64,000 nt of DNA from Escherichia coli (GTDB lineage: Bacteria > Pseudomonadota > Gammaproteobacteria > Enterobacterales > Enterobacteriaceae): NCBI RefSeq assembly GCF_003334815.1, contig NZ_QOWO01000013.1, one strand, 5' to 3'. Positions 7,521 through 52,174 of the stretch are shown in pieces (positions within the stretch are counted from its first letter, which is position 1; each line of letters begins with the position of its first letter). The notes beneath the pieces are model-generated. The model was given only the letters and a program-made list of their open reading frames with translations. It made no database searches and had not been told where the DNA came from. Made by a program: the position numbers and the translations under genes.

Positions 7521-10698
<3,178 letters not shown>

Positions 10699-10988
10699 GG
10701 TTCTCTCCCTAAAAATCTGTCTGGCAGGGTAGCGATTTGTGCGCATTGTCACGATTGAGATTTTTTAAGGGGAGGGGAAATTGATAACTTGTAGTTATGT
10801 GAAATCGCTATTTTCTGTAGCAGAGATGCATTCTTCTGACTTCTTGTCTGAGAAAATGCATAAGAAAAAATAGGTTAAAACTGAGGGGGGAAAAGAAAGG
10901 TGCAATATTTAGCCATTGTGTTCACTGCACCTGGACCTTGGCTTACGCATCGGGTGTCTCAATCAACAAAAAGAGTTTTTAGTTTCTG

Positions 10989-11813
10989 CTATTTCTTCTC
11001 TGTAATTTTTACACTGTTTTCCAACTGCTTGATGCTGACCTGCGGGGTCGGCAACTCCTCAGGCATGGTTCCGCCAAGTTCCTGAATGGTTTGCCTCACC
11101 TTGCGACCCACGTCAAAGTGTGTGGTGTTTGCTTGCTGTTTTGAATTCACGCCATCCCGCTTGAGTTTTTCTTCTGTTTGGGTAGCTCGAAAGAGATTAG
11201 CCGCCAGTTCTGTTGAACCCATATGATCCAGGATCTTCTGATTCTTTTTCAGCCCCTTCCGCTGATGAATAGCTTTCTGATCTAATCCACCATACAGCCC
11301 CTGGTAACCATGATTCTGAAATATGGCGAAATCAGTAGCTGTCGCTACCCCAGCTTGCTGTGCTGCCTCAACCAATTGTTTGTTATGTTCTTTCAACTCA
11401 TTTCTCAGAAACAGACGCTTTTCGTCTTCACGAAGTTGCTTAAATGCTTCATCGTCAGCAAGCTCCTGCCGTCGGGTCTGGATAGCAAAATAAGTCTGCC
11501 CTGCCGCAATGACCGGTTTCGCAGGGTCGCCGTTTTGTACTACCAGGTAACAGGCATAGCGGGAGAGTACGATGTCTTTTAATGCTCTTTTGGCATTTGA
11601 GCCAATTTTGACCATATCGAGGATCTCCTCGAAATGGTCATCAATTGTGTGACCACTGTTCTCACAGGCTTCTTTGGCGCGCGTTAATACAGGTATAAAG
11701 TGACGATACTCTGAATAACCCAGTAGTTTCCCAAGTTGTCTTGCTGACCATTGTTCTGCTCCGTTTGCATTAATCAGTTTTATCTCTTCAAAAGGTTGAT
11801 GATGTTCGTTCAT
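10989..11813 (-). CDS. dinD: DNA damage-inducible protein DinD
   Basis: ORF track 10989..11825; start MNEHHQPFEEI at ATG 11813 (274 aa); LexA box about 45 bp upstream. Confidence 0.82.
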   Translation of the reverse strand: MNEHHQPFEEIKLINANGAEQWSARQLGKLLGYSEYRHFIPVLTRAKEACENSGHTIDDHFEEILDMVKIGSNAKRALKDIVLSRYACYLVVQNGDPAKPVIAAGQTYFAIQTRRQELADDEAFKQLREDEKRLFLRNELKEHNKQLVEAAQQAGVATATDFAIFQNHGYQGLYGGLDQKAIHQRKGLKKNQKILDHMGSTELAANLFRATQTEEKLKRDGVNSKQQANTTHFDVGRKVRQTIQELGGTMPEELPTPQVSIKQLENSVKITEKK

Positions 11814-11856
11814 TGCCCACTCCATGTGATATCAATTGCAAAGAAAGTAAATCTGT

Positions 11857-11876
11857 AACTGTATTTATATACAGTT
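11857..11876 (-). promoter_or_regulatory. LexA (SOS) box upstream of dinD
   Basis: aaCTGTatttatatACAGtt fits the CTGT-N8-ACAG SOS-box consensus. Confidence 0.65.
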
Positions 11877-12033
11877 GTGAGTATCTCACGTTCTCAGTGT
11901 GCTGGGCAAAAAAACATCGCAAAATCTGGAGCAGGCACGCAAAACAGAATTGAATGTTGCGGGGAAGAAAAATGCCGCTCTGTTTGAGTGGCGGCATTTG
12001 TGAAGGCGGAAAAGTAAGAATTGGCGTTACGAG

Positions 12034-12897
12034 TTATTCGATGTTCTGAATCTGCTCGCGCATCTGCTCAATCAACACTTTCAGCTCGATGGCGGAGTTT
12101 GTCACTTCGGCATTGATAGACTTCGACGCAAGAGTGTTCGACTCGCGGTTGAACTCCTGCATCATAAAATCCAGACGACGACCAACCGCTTCTTTTTTCT
12201 TCAGAATGTTGTAGGTCTCTTTGACATGCGCTTCGAGGCGATCCAGTTCTTCGGCAACGTCAATTCGTTGTGCCAGCAGAACCAGTTCCTGCTCCAGACG
12301 GTTGTTTTCCAGTTGCACCTGAGCATCTTCCAGCTTCGCGACCAGACGCTCACGCTGCCATTGCAGGATTTCCGGCATATGGGAGCGGACTTTGACCACT
12401 TCGGCGGTGACGCCTTCCAGACGCTGCTCGATCAATGCTTTCAGTGCCTGACCTTCGGTTTCGCGCGCGACAATAAAGTCGTCCAGCGTACCATCCAGCG
12501 CCGCGAGAATTTCAGCGGCAATGGCGTCAAGATCCTGCTCCTGGGCTGCCATCACGCCCGGCCAGCGTAGAATATCAACCGGGTTGATTTCCCCTTCGTC
12601 ACTCTGCATTTTTACCCAGTTCGCGGCAGTTACCAGCTGTTTAGCCAGTTTTTCGTTGAGGATCAGCTCACCTTGCGCGCTAACATCTGGCTCATAGCGC
12701 AGGGTACATTCCACTTTACCGCGCGTCAGGCGAGAACGAATACGCTCGCGAACGACAGGTTCAAGGCTACGGAACTGCTCCGGCAGACGAAAGTAAGTTT
12801 CCAGATAACGCTGGTTTACCGAGCGCATTTCCCAGGTTGCGCTCCCCCATTCACCCTTGATTTCACGCCGGGCGTAGGCGGTCATACTGCGGATCAT
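12034..12897 (-). CDS. yicC: YicC-family stress-induced protein
   Basis: ORF track 287 aa MIRSMTAYARREIK...; divergent from rph. Confidence 0.88.
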   Translation of the reverse strand: MIRSMTAYARREIKGEWGSATWEMRSVNQRYLETYFRLPEQFRSLEPVVRERIRSRLTRGKVECTLRYEPDVSAQGELILNEKLAKQLVTAANWVKMQSDEGEINPVDILRWPGVMAAQEQDLDAIAAEILAALDGTLDDFIVARETEGQALKALIEQRLEGVTAEVVKVRSHMPEILQWQRERLVAKLEDAQVQLENNRLEQELVLLAQRIDVAEELDRLEAHVKETYNILKKKEAVGRRLDFMMQEFNRESNTLASKSINAEVTNSAIELKVLIEQMREQIQNIE

Positions 12898-13023
12898 AGA
12901 CGTTCCTGTTTATAAAAGGAGAGGTGGAAGGATTATAGCCATCGATGCCTTGTCAGGATAGGAATAACCGCCGGAAGTCCGTATAATGCGCAGCCACATT
13001 TGTTTCAAGCCGGAGATTTCAAT

Positions 13024-49746: not shown

Positions 49747-50519
49747 GCGTTTTTCTCCCTCGAATGCTCATTATGCTCACCGGGCAGGCGGGTAATCCGT
49801 GCGTGGCGAGCCTGATCTTCATCGAATCGTTTCATGGTGGTGTGAACAAAACTAAGGTGCGCCATCATTGCTTTACGCGCCCCGTCAGCATCACCGGCAA
49901 AAATGGCGTCAATGACAGCCTGATGTTGTTCGGTCAGTTGTGAAAAAACCGGTGGCACCAGATACATCCGCTGACGGCTATGCTTCACTGAGGATTGCAG
50001 GACATCGAAGAAACCGCGCATGGTTTGCAGCAGCACGATGTTATGTGAGGCTTCGGCAATCGCCAGATGAAAACGAACGTCCGCTTGTGAGGCGATATCC
50101 GGGTCTTCACTTAGCGTTGCTTCAAAGCAAAGCTGAATCTTTTCTTTGTCGCCAGGTGTGGCGCGCATTGCCGCATGCCATGCGGTGCTGGCTTCAATGG
50201 CGTAGCGGGCTTCCAGAATATCGAAACTGTAATCCGGATCATCGGCCATCAGTGTTTTTAGCGGCTGGACGATGTTTTGCTCCGACCATGTGTCATGACG
50301 CCAGCGAATAAACGTCCCGCCGCCGCGTCGACTGAGCAGCACGCCTTCACTCACCAGTTTTGCCAGCGCCTCGCGCAGTGAATTACGTGATACGCCGAGT
50401 TGCATCGCCAGTTGGCGCTCAGCGGGCAACTTCATGCCCGCTTCCAGGTTTTTTTCATCAATCAGCGCCCGCACACGATCGGCAACCTCGTCTGACAGGC
50501 GTCTGGGTAAAACAATCAT
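49743..50519 (-). CDS. lldR: GntR-family lactate operon regulator LldR
   Basis: ORF track 49743..50534; ATG 50519 gives 258 aa and overlaps the lldP stop. Confidence 0.9.
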
Positions 50520-52174
50520 TAAGGAATCATCCACGTTAAGACATAAGCCTGAAGCGTGGTGATCACGCCCACTATACAGGTGAAGATCAGGCTGTGTTTG
50601 ACAGTAAAGCGGAACAAATCAGACTCTTTGCCCACCAGGCCTACCGCCGCACAGGCGATAGCGATAGATTGCGGGGAGATCATCTTACCGGTGACGCCAC
50701 CGGTGGTATTGGCGGCAACCAGCAACAGATCAGAGACGCCAATTTGTTGTGCTGCGGTGGCTTGCAGCGCGGCGAACAGGGCGTTAGATGAGGTATCCGA
50801 CCCGGTCAGGAATACCCCCAGCCAGCCGAGGAACGGCGAGAAGAAGGTGAATGCATGACCGGTGTGCGCCAGTGCCAGCGCCAGTGTTGATGACAGTCCG
50901 GAATAGTTCGAAATAAAGGCGAATGCCAGCACCATACCGATGGAGTAGATGGGCAGAGCCAGTTCTTTCAGCGTGCTGCCGAAGGTGCTGATAGCGTCAG
51001 ACGGTTTCATCTTCAGCCAGACAATCGAGAGCAGTGCAGCAAACAGAATGGCGGTGCCGGTGGCAGAGAACCAGTCAAACTTAAACACGGCGGCATAGGC
51101 TGTAGCCTCGCTGACCACTGGCGGCATACGGGCAACCAGTTTATCGAGGTACGGCACCGGAATATTGATCACCCACTCATACAGCGCGCCACCCGATGCG
51201 AACAGGGCTTTAAACGGCGGGATACTCCACAGTGTTACGGTAGCTGTCAGGAACAGGAACGGTGTCCAGGCACGTAACACCTGACCCGCAGTGTAACCGG
51301 TGTGGGCCAGCGTCATATCAACCTGTGACGCCCCCAAATCACCAAAACGGAATACACGCACTGGCTGCCAGCGTTTGAGGAACAGCGTCAGGCAGAGCAG
51401 TGATACCAGCGAAGAGATAATGTCCGGCAGCTCCGGCCCAATGAAGTTAGAGCTAAGGTACTGAGCGATGGCAAACGAGCCGCCCGCAACCACGACCGCA
51501 GGCCACGTCTCTTTGATACCGCGCCAGCCGTCCATAATCGCCATGATCCAGAACAGCACGATAATGGTCATAAACGGTAGCTGCCGCCCCACCATCTGAC
51601 CAATCTCAAAGCTGTCGATACCTGTTACCTGTCCGGCAACCAGGATTGGAATGCCCATCGCACCAAATGCCACTGGCGCGGTGTTAACAATCAGGCACAG
51701 CCCGGCGGCGTACAGCGGTTTAAAACCCAGGCCGACCAGCAATGCGGCGGTAATTGCTACCGGTGCGCCAAAGCCTGCGGCTCCTTCAAGGAACGCGCCG
51801 AAACAGAAACCGACGATCAGCATTTGCAGACGCTGGTCAGGGGTTATCGAAAGAATAGACGAGCGAATGATGTCAAACTGCCCGGTTTTCACCGAGATCT
51901 TATAGACGAACACCGCTGCAATAATGATCCACGCGATGGGCCACAACCCGTAGAAGAAACCATAAACCACCGAGGCCAGCGCGTTAGCGACCGGCATTTT
52001 ATAGAACAGCAAAGCCACGGCAAGGGCGATTGCCACCGTCCACGAGGCGGCGACGTATCCTTTCAGTTTGAGCTTAATCAGCGCAAAGAAGAAAAACAGG
52101 ATGGGAAGCGATGCTATCAGACTGGAAAGCCAGATATTCCCGGCGGGATCGTAGTTTTGTTGCCAGAGATTCAT
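50519..52174 (-). CDS. lldP: L-lactate permease
   Basis: ORF track 50519..52201; conserved start [13 protein letters not shown] at ATG 52174 (551 aa). Confidence 0.92.

Follow-up and report, generated by a model that had tools for sequence, protein, structure and literature searches.

The dinD locus and its operator

We analysed a 64,000-nt stretch of Escherichia coli DNA (contig NZ_QOWO01000013.1; hereafter the window) and, within it, the gene at 10989–11813. This is E. coli dinD with its LexA operator, an already known gene, lying on the minus strand, a detail omitted by the earlier note on this DNA, which a model had made from the letters of the window. The protein matches the DinD equivalog of NCBIfam, NF008573 (PRK11525), at 488.1 bits against a cut-off of 242, with residues 1–274 aligned to positions 6–279 of a 288-position profile, and RefSeq calls a 100% identical locus dinD, with 274 residues. 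Around it the E. coli chromosome has the gene order gmk-ligB-yicG-dinD-yicC-rph-pyrE-slmA, with yicG at 10081–10698/10752 and yicC at 12034–12897, both on the minus strand. The GC content of dinD is 0.458, and that of the island on which it lies (see below) 0.450, against 0.534–0.538 for yicG and yicC. The name dinD, the position of the gene wedged between yicG and yicC, as given by the open reading frame (ORF) list and RefSeq, and the moderately AT-rich composition of its DNA were all read correctly in the earlier note.

10989–11813, minus strand: dinD coding sequence, 274 codons plus stop (ORF list, NF008573, RefSeq)
11820–11823, minus strand: Shine-Dalgarno sequence GGAG, 6 nt 5′ of ATG 11813 (direct reading of the minus strand)
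11857–11876, unstranded: LexA operator (SOS box), reading AACTGTATATAAATACAGTT on the gene strand (consensus match and shuffles)

The mechanical ORF for dinD spans 10989–11825 and encodes 278 residues. The start codon is likely to be ATG 11813 rather than the in-frame ATG 11825, because GGAG lies 6 nt upstream of the former, the latter has no Shine-Dalgarno sequence and RefSeq gives a protein of 274 residues. In an alignment of upstream regions, the ribosome-binding site and start region, ACATGGAGTGRGCAATGAACGA, is kept in Salmonella, Pectobacterium and Yersinia.

The 20-mer at 11857–11876 fits the LexA consensus TACTGTATATATATACAGTA at 17 of 20 positions, a fit that none of 100 shuffles equalled, and is separated from ATG 11813 by 43 nt, bearing out the near-consensus LexA box that had been placed about 45 bp upstream of the gene. 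Its core, CTGTATTTATATACAG at 11859–11874, is the sole CTGT-N8-ACAG in the 64 kb; this core alone is not significant, as 43 of 100 shuffles give at least one and the chance expectation is 0.6. A strict sigma-70 consensus scan of 10700–12100 found no promoter. SOS control of dinD is well established: a review places the gene among those with a known SOS box (PMC6590174), and dinD::lacZ is a standard reporter of the SOS response and DNA damage.

We surveyed up to 300 bp upstream of dinD in 80 species loci and in extra loci. Of these, only the E. coli loci carry a canonical LexA box; Citrobacter dinD has a candidate box with one mismatch. The upstream regions of dinD in E. coli, Salmonella, Pectobacterium, Yersinia and Pantoea have a GAATGTGAGATAYT motif and the ribosome-binding site and start block in common; in this five-genus alignment, the palindrome between the two is present in E. 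coli only. Because the box is seen in E. coli copies alone, ‘DNA damage-inducible’ is probably a name that most members of the DinD family have taken over from E. coli. In the window, a GAATGTGAGATAYT-like motif lies at 11883–11896 (minus strand GAACGTGAGATACT), about 70 nt upstream of the dinD start, and may be a promoter element or another operator. In one further strain, E. coli 167 (L091, NZ_CM132939.1), the ISL3-family element ISKox3 sits inside the LexA box, at the place of window positions ~11863–11870, with an 8-bp target duplication, ATTTATAT; the operator is split and dinD is cut off from the DNA upstream.

A variable island at the 3′ end of yicC

We examined the yicG–yicC interval in 5426 complete E. 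coli genomes. In the dinD-less strains, window positions 10873–12033 are swapped for about 77 unrelated bp. This dinD-less allele occurs in 705 of the 5426 genomes, and dinD is present in 87%. The gene is the sole one on a 1.16-kb island that has sharp boundaries at 10873 and 12033, a presence/absence polymorphism and a deviant composition (GC 0.450).

10873–12033, unstranded: dinD island, 1161 bp (window aligned with L001 and L002, which lack dinD)
12034–12054, minus strand: attachment (att) core, the 3′ end of yicC (CAGATTCAGAACATCGAATAA), at the right island edge; about 21 bp, duplicated at element ends in other strains
10860–10883, minus strand: possible degenerate second att copy (CAGTTTTAACCTATTTTTTCTTAT), uncertain, at the left island edge (alignment with copies in five genera)
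11967–11999, minus strand: hairpin and T-run just 3′ of yicC, inside the island (direct sequence reading)

The right edge of the island falls exactly at the yicC stop codon. In another E. coli strain (L004), the 21-bp end of yicC is duplicated on both sides of a 6-kb element with integrase, AlpA and primase genes, and in a second (L090) its copies flank a decayed DUF927 element at either end. These duplications identify the 3′ end of yicC as an attachment site. The att copies differ by 2–4-nt deletions and were missed by an ungapped repeat finder but recovered by fuzzy search and alignment. At the left edge of the dinD island, the segment 10860–10883 coincides with the indel boundary at 10872/10873, the match itself being weak. 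The ORF list contains no integrase gene in the window island; integrases are found at the same site in L004 and in the Salmonella locus L094, described below. Each of the elements at the yicC end (L004, L090 and L094) rebuilds the YicC C terminus, QIQNIE followed by the stop, with synonymous changes.

We considered whether dinD might be cargo of the L004 satellite and rejected this, as an att copy separates the element from dinD; the same holds for L090. The hairpin at 11967–11999 is probably the yicC terminator, judged from the sequence, and differs in sequence at the matching place in dinD-less strains. A simple terminator scan did not list it and gave as its sole match a site inside dinD on the wrong strand, which is uninformative.

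dinD on an integrative element in Salmonella

In one Salmonella enterica genome (L094), a 9.9-kb element extends from an integrase gene beside yicC to dinD, which is its last gene. Besides the integrase, it encodes an AlpA-like protein, a primase and an excisionase, together with a Bro-N anti-repressor and a repressor-like protein; capsid genes are absent. The Salmonella-specific 12-mer GAGCAAATCCAA occurs exactly only twice in 20.8 kb, first where yicC ends and again 109 bp beyond the stop codon of dinD, and it is this exact match, not an alignment score, that carries the argument for att sites in Salmonella. In Pectobacterium fontis and Yersinia massiliensis, dinD stands alone, with yicC on one side and, about 100 bp beyond the dinD stop codon, a clear att-like copy on the other, and the same copy follows dinD in Morganella and Photorhabdus; with Salmonella, att-like copies thus lie about 100 bp past dinD in five genera.

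Identity to the E. coli proteins does not run in parallel for the two neighbours: Salmonella YicC is 96% identical and DinD 76%, compared with 86% and 83% in Pectobacterium. Further, dinD occupies another locus, ibpB–yidE, in Citrobacter, and lies beside smpB in Sulfurimonas. We conclude with moderate confidence that dinD was brought in by an integrative, satellite-like element, of which the E. coli island is the remnant.

The earlier note had suggested a domesticated phage gene. The probable mobile origin and the phage homologues (see below) agree with that suggestion; the source itself appears to be a capsid-less, satellite-like element, not a phage proper. The comparison of gene order proposed there places dinD beside yicC in several genera, but with att-like repeats and with the mismatch between DinD and YicC identities. 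Broad conservation at this position, coupled with a lack of similarity to phage proteins, had been named as the pattern that would speak against a phage origin; similarity to phage proteins is present.

Domain architecture and two alleles of the Bro-N core

DinD consists of an N-terminal Bro-N region, within which E. coli carries two alternative sequences, and a conserved C-terminal domain.

11529–11786, minus strand: Bro-N domain region, residues 10–105 (Pfam PF02498, tblastn, AlphaFold model)
11571–11794, minus strand: dimorphic cassette, 220 bp, residues ~12–82, the Bro-N core (block-wise alignment of the window and L005)
10989–11455, minus strand: all-helical C-terminal domain, residues ~120–274, the most conserved part of the family (alignment and model, with helices at 129–273)

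Pfam PF02498 (Bro-N) matches residues 10–105 with an E-value of 4.6e-7, covering model positions 1–88 of 96. A tblastn search of phage genomes gave more than 200 actinophage ‘antirepressor’ genes that match residues ~6–120 at 33–49% identity, so the suspicion that the N-terminal third has the look of a Bro-N or anti-repressor domain proved well founded. The phage matches end at residue ~120–160 of DinD. In the phage collection, 42 records cover at least 80% of the protein; near-full-length matches come from Streptococcus satellite phages (52–55% identity), Riemerella and Akkermansia phages and a Zymomonas phage-like plasmid, and PHROG 8036 matches over the full length. The C-terminal two-thirds of DinD gave no Pfam match and contain no KilAC or ANT domain; HMGSTELAANLFRATQ is an example of the invariant motifs in the C-terminal domain. 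Neither Pfam nor the fold search yielded a catalytic motif or an enzyme-like fold.

Two candidates were discarded along the way. An enzymatic role for conserved His and Asp residues was dropped, as the Pfam and fold matches give it no support. A Pfam RNA_pol_N match (E = 0.006) was rejected as an artefact, the same chance-level matches to Rpo10 appearing in the PDB searches.

The Bro-N core exists in two forms within E. coli. Aligned with L005, the window sequence is only about 55% identical over 11571–11794, compared with 98–100% in the rest of the island, including the promoter, codons 1–11 and codons 83–274. Allele A, the type in the window, was found in 1899 of the 5426 genomes and allele B, the O157:H7 type, in 2814; together with the 705 dinD-less genomes these account for 5418. 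The core of allele B resembles the DinD of Salmonella and Rahnella. Among 38 family members, mean pairwise identity is 0.51 for residues 12–82, 0.85 for 83–119 and 0.76 for 120–255. In these alignments the core of the N-domain acts like a specificity cassette that can be exchanged while the rest of the protein stays constant.

Two further observations concern relatives and copies of the protein. Some DinD relatives of about 400 residues (P0011, P0016, P0066 and P0118) have two tandem Bro-N domains followed by a single C-terminal domain. A record named ‘Campylobacter phage A18a’ (MG065686.1) contains at 50367–51188 an unannotated, 100% identical copy of E. coli dinD, and is probably an assembly containing E. 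coli DNA rather than the source of a true phage gene.

A predicted fold resembling DdrC

An AlphaFold model of DinD, built from 40 sequences (predicted local distance difference test score, pLDDT, 85.8), has an alpha/beta N-domain from residue 1 to ~95, a long helix at 100–119 and an all-helical C-domain. In a Foldseek search with this model, the top five matches were all chains of DdrC (E = 3.7e-4, probability 1.00, ~240 aligned columns), and the next match had an E-value of 0.16. The model displays the two-domain arrangement of DdrC, with a hairpin and winged helix in the N-domain and a helical bundle in the C-domain. Searches of the PDB with the DinD sequence and with the 40-sequence profile returned only chance-level matches to Rpo10, an RNA polymerase subunit. 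A fold search of AFDB50 gave only DinD family members among the best 50 matches and no bridge to DdrC.

DdrC is induced by damage and forms an asymmetric, domain-swapped dimer, which binds nicks or ends in pairs and compacts DNA or makes it circular; according to both structural papers, it has no homologues outside Deinococcus. The literature that we searched contains no paper linking DinD and DdrC. We treat the likeness as a lead at the level of the predicted fold, not as proof of membership.

A widespread family linked to Type I restriction operons

The DinD family comprises 1,890 clusters at 50% identity (E ≤ 1e-30). Homologues 62–83% identical to DinD occur in Chlamydiae, Bacillota, Campylobacterota, Spirochaetes, Planctomycetes, Verrucomicrobia and other groups, and homologues are also found in phage satellites, plasmids and prophage-like elements. 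This patchy distribution, combined with high conservation, argues for frequent transfer and a very conserved target. Across phyla, the level of conservation is close to that of core DNA-repair proteins and hints at a universal target, for example RecA or DNA ends.

Of the 80 species loci, 29 have dinD nested in a Type I restriction-modification operon, on the same strand as the operon and often with its frame overlapping or nearly abutting that of hsdM or hsdS. Neisseria NgoAV and an operon of Limnobacter are examples of Type I operons with dinD. The usual gene orders are short-HsdS/DinD/HsdM/HsdS/HsdR and short-HsdS/HsdM/DinD/HsdS/HsdR. Additionally, three PDC-S13 candidate-defence profiles of PADLOC match DinD, PDLC04919 over the full length with E = 2.4e-121. 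A further PADLOC profile, the 717-residue ‘Specificity_I’ profile PDLC03083, a DinD–HsdS fusion, matches with E = 3e-114, its first 267 positions corresponding to DinD. One DinD–HsdS fusion protein of 717 residues is present in AFDB. The occurrence of dinD genes inside Type I loci has been mentioned in passing in two papers. The window copy has no hsd neighbours and is flanked by yicG and yicC.

Several dinD loci have further peculiarities. A Pasteurellaceae Type I operon (L035, 10001–10828 and 12434–13288) and a Campylobacterales locus (L079, 9974–10789 and 10816–11676) each contain two DinD paralogues, of which one is only ~34% identical to E. coli DinD, suggesting a second, divergent DinD subfamily that pairs with the conserved one. 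Restriction operons with dinD usually open with a short HsdS-like ORF of ~190–200 residues besides the full-length hsdS (L008, 7411–8001; similar in L022, L026, L041, L076 and others). L008 also has a SMODS/SLATT gene pair between hsdS and hsdR.

Other features of the window

A 16-nt stretch near the 3′ end of dinD is shared with tisAB.

11022–11037, unstranded: 16-nt stretch CAACTGCTTGATGCTG, the same as the tisAB sequence antisense to the dinD 3′ end (PMC2577331)

The paper that reported it detected no cleavage of dinD mRNA that depended on tisAB (PMC2577331), and an Rfam scan of 10000–13000 at E ≤ 1 found no known RNA element in the intergenic regions. Beyond yicG, ligB (ending at 10084) and yicG (ending at 10081) are convergent, and their 3′ ends overlap by 4 bp, at 10081–10084. 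The GC content of the whole window is 0.482, lower than that of the genes around dinD; further AT-rich segments must therefore lie elsewhere in it.

A role for DinD and the alternatives

The gene dinD, also named pcsA, is one of the original din genes. It is dispensable, and the phenotype of pcsA68 is recA-dependent. According to the papers that cite Uranga 2011, DinD inhibits RecA strand exchange and acts on postsynaptic filaments. As far as these citing papers convey that work, the description of dinD as a gene of unknown function is dated.

We consider it probable, though with a good deal of room for doubt, that E. coli dinD is an imported gene wired into the SOS response, that it belongs to a mobile family and that its product removes RecA in the manner of a DdrC-like protein. 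Cleavage of LexA would lead to synthesis of DinD, which would bind duplex or broken DNA as a DdrC-like dimer and displace RecA from the products of strand exchange, limiting or ending recombination. When encoded by a mobile element or within a restriction operon, DinD would by the same activity keep broken invader DNA from being rescued through recombination. The copy imported into E. coli would have been put under LexA, a rewiring that we see in E. coli copies alone, and would restrain RecA at a late stage.

Several points weigh against this account. For the activity, the inhibition of RecA by DinD is an in vitro result, taken here from citing papers, and no phenotype has been reported for a dinD deletion (PMC2577331). 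For the mobile origin, the E. coli far-end att copy is a weak match in the alignment; the relation between the island and the dinD-less allele is a replacement, with no clean insertion; and the newer, att-bounded elements of E. coli L004 and L090 do not include dinD, which lies just outside them. Membership of dinD in an element is drawn from one Salmonella genome together with the att-like copies in other genera, and the Salmonella att match was not exceptional in a lenient local-alignment control. For the resemblance to DdrC, the comparison is between a model and crystal structures, with 15–17% identity and a high global root-mean-square deviation, and the 40-sequence DinD profile found no DdrC among PDB sequences even at E ≤ 10. 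For a part in defence, the literature searched, including that on PDC-S13, holds no experiment tying DinD to restriction or phage defence, and transformation was little affected when a dinD-like gene was removed from an island in pneumococcus.

The genomic contexts of dinD also invite other explanations. DinD could work mainly as the partner of Type I restriction enzymes or provide a second line of defence, placed like PrrC, tethered to HsdS or HsdM and acting on the ends or recombination intermediates of invader DNA or sensing anti-restriction, with the E. coli copy an orphan that has little role in repair. The 29 species loci (of 80) in which dinD shares the strand of a Type I operon, in many cases overlapping hsdM or hsdS, the DinD–HsdS fusions and the three PDC-S13 matches all point in this direction, as do the accessory positions in satellites and on plasmids beside toxin–antitoxin and Abi genes, the presence or absence of dinD within E. 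coli and a modelled fold like that of a break-binding protein. We nevertheless rate this explanation as rather unlikely: about 60% of the sampled homologues are unlinked to restriction genes, the window copy has no flanking hsd genes, no catalytic motif or enzyme-like fold was found and the literature searched reports no experimental defence phenotype. An alternative starting from the N-terminal domain is that DinD is a relic antirepressor under LexA control, made during the SOS response, which binds the repressor of a resident prophage or satellite and so causes induction, its variable Bro-N core matching the cognate repressor. Control of antirepressors by LexA, as for Tum of coliphage 186 and those of the Gifsy phages, is an established paradigm. 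The first 120 residues have homologues in many phage proteins labelled antirepressor, the core is swapped as a cassette, as expected of a specificity determinant, a repressor-like gene and a further Bro-N anti-repressor are present on the Salmonella element, and streptococcal satellites have dinD between a cI-like repressor gene and int. However, neither the intact Salmonella element nor any other non-E. coli copy examined has a LexA box, a third of the homologues lie in restriction operons with no repressor nearby, and the C-terminal two-thirds lack KilAC and ANT and are 76% identical across phyla, unlike fast-evolving antirepressors. The label ‘antirepressor’ on phage Bro-N proteins is, moreover, mostly annotation only, and we regard this role for DinD as improbable.

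As to the origin of the gene, dinD could instead be an old Enterobacterales gene, inherited vertically at yicC and lost time and again, in which case the att-like repeats and low GC content would be incidental. Its position beside yicC in Pectobacterium, Photorhabdus, Morganella, Yersinia, Rahnella, Providencia and E. coli, and its presence in 87% of E. coli genomes, would fit such a history. Yet DinD identity does not track YicC identity (76% against 96% in Salmonella, 83% against 86% in Pectobacterium), Citrobacter dinD is at ibpB–yidE instead, the spacing between dinD and yicC ranges from 146 bp to 5 kb, att-like copies follow dinD, the island has a GC content of 0.45 against 0.53–0.54 for its neighbours and homologues 74–78% identical occur in Pseudomonas, Limnobacter and Chlorobiaceae. 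We judge vertical inheritance to be very unlikely.

The account of DinD as an imported, RecA-removing protein can be taken further, in a form that we put forward tentatively, as a possibility that we doubt more than we believe. The DinD family would then be a mobile, DdrC-like module that binds breaks or duplex DNA and strips RecA, and would serve as an accessory subunit of Type I systems and satellites by making invader breaks irreparable or by blocking recombination-dependent phage replication. The swappable Bro-N core would set partner or target specificity, and E. coli dinD would be an orphan captured by LexA. Were this true, the ‘Deinococcus-specific’ DdrC would be a divergent member of a Bro-N/DinD superfamily.

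The analysis recasts dinD as an imported gene, variably present within E. coli, from a family strongly tied to Type I operons and mobile elements. The mobile origin, the LexA control seen only in E. coli copies, the N-domain dimorphism, the Type I linkage and the DdrC resemblance are modestly novel and can be tested. Such tests could close a 40-year-old loose end in the SOS regulon and could add a recombination-blocking layer to restriction-based immunity.

Comparison with known systems

The closest known system is DinD (PcsA) of E. coli K-12, at the same locus between yicG and yicC and with the same LexA box as is listed for dinD. There is no essential difference between the two; the window has allele A of the N-domain cassette. 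As a locus, the dinD island resembles decayed integrative elements such as PICI-like and P4-like satellites, with an att core in the 3′ end of a housekeeping gene, elements with integrase, AlpA and primase genes at the same site in other strains, a presence/absence polymorphism and low GC. It differs from them in lacking, in the window, both an integrase and a clear second att copy, a single gene being left.

As a protein, DinD has the N-domain in common with phage Bro-N proteins (PF02498; Ant/KilAC antirepressors) over residues 10–105. By contrast, its C-terminal 150 residues form a different, helical domain, without KilAC or ANT, and no cognate repressor is known. Its homologues resemble the accessory genes of restriction operons (PrrC, RloC, RhuM-type genes and PDC-S13) in lying between hsdM, hsdS and hsdR on the same strand, whereas the window copy has no hsd neighbours, and DinD has no nuclease or effector domain that we found and no defence phenotype reported in the literature searched. 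Among solved structures, DdrC of Deinococcus radiodurans (PDB 7qvb, 7udi and 8u0g) is the only significant match to the DinD model; the two have no detectable sequence similarity, and the DinD side of the comparison is predicted.

Finally, published work groups DinD with RecX, DinI, PsiB and RdgC as negative regulators of RecA filaments. DinI and RecX are, like DinD, controlled by LexA in E. coli. All four are unrelated to DinD in fold and family, and DinD differs further in reportedly targeting postsynaptic, duplex-bound filaments, as relayed by the citing papers, and, compared with recX, in being mobile and variably present.

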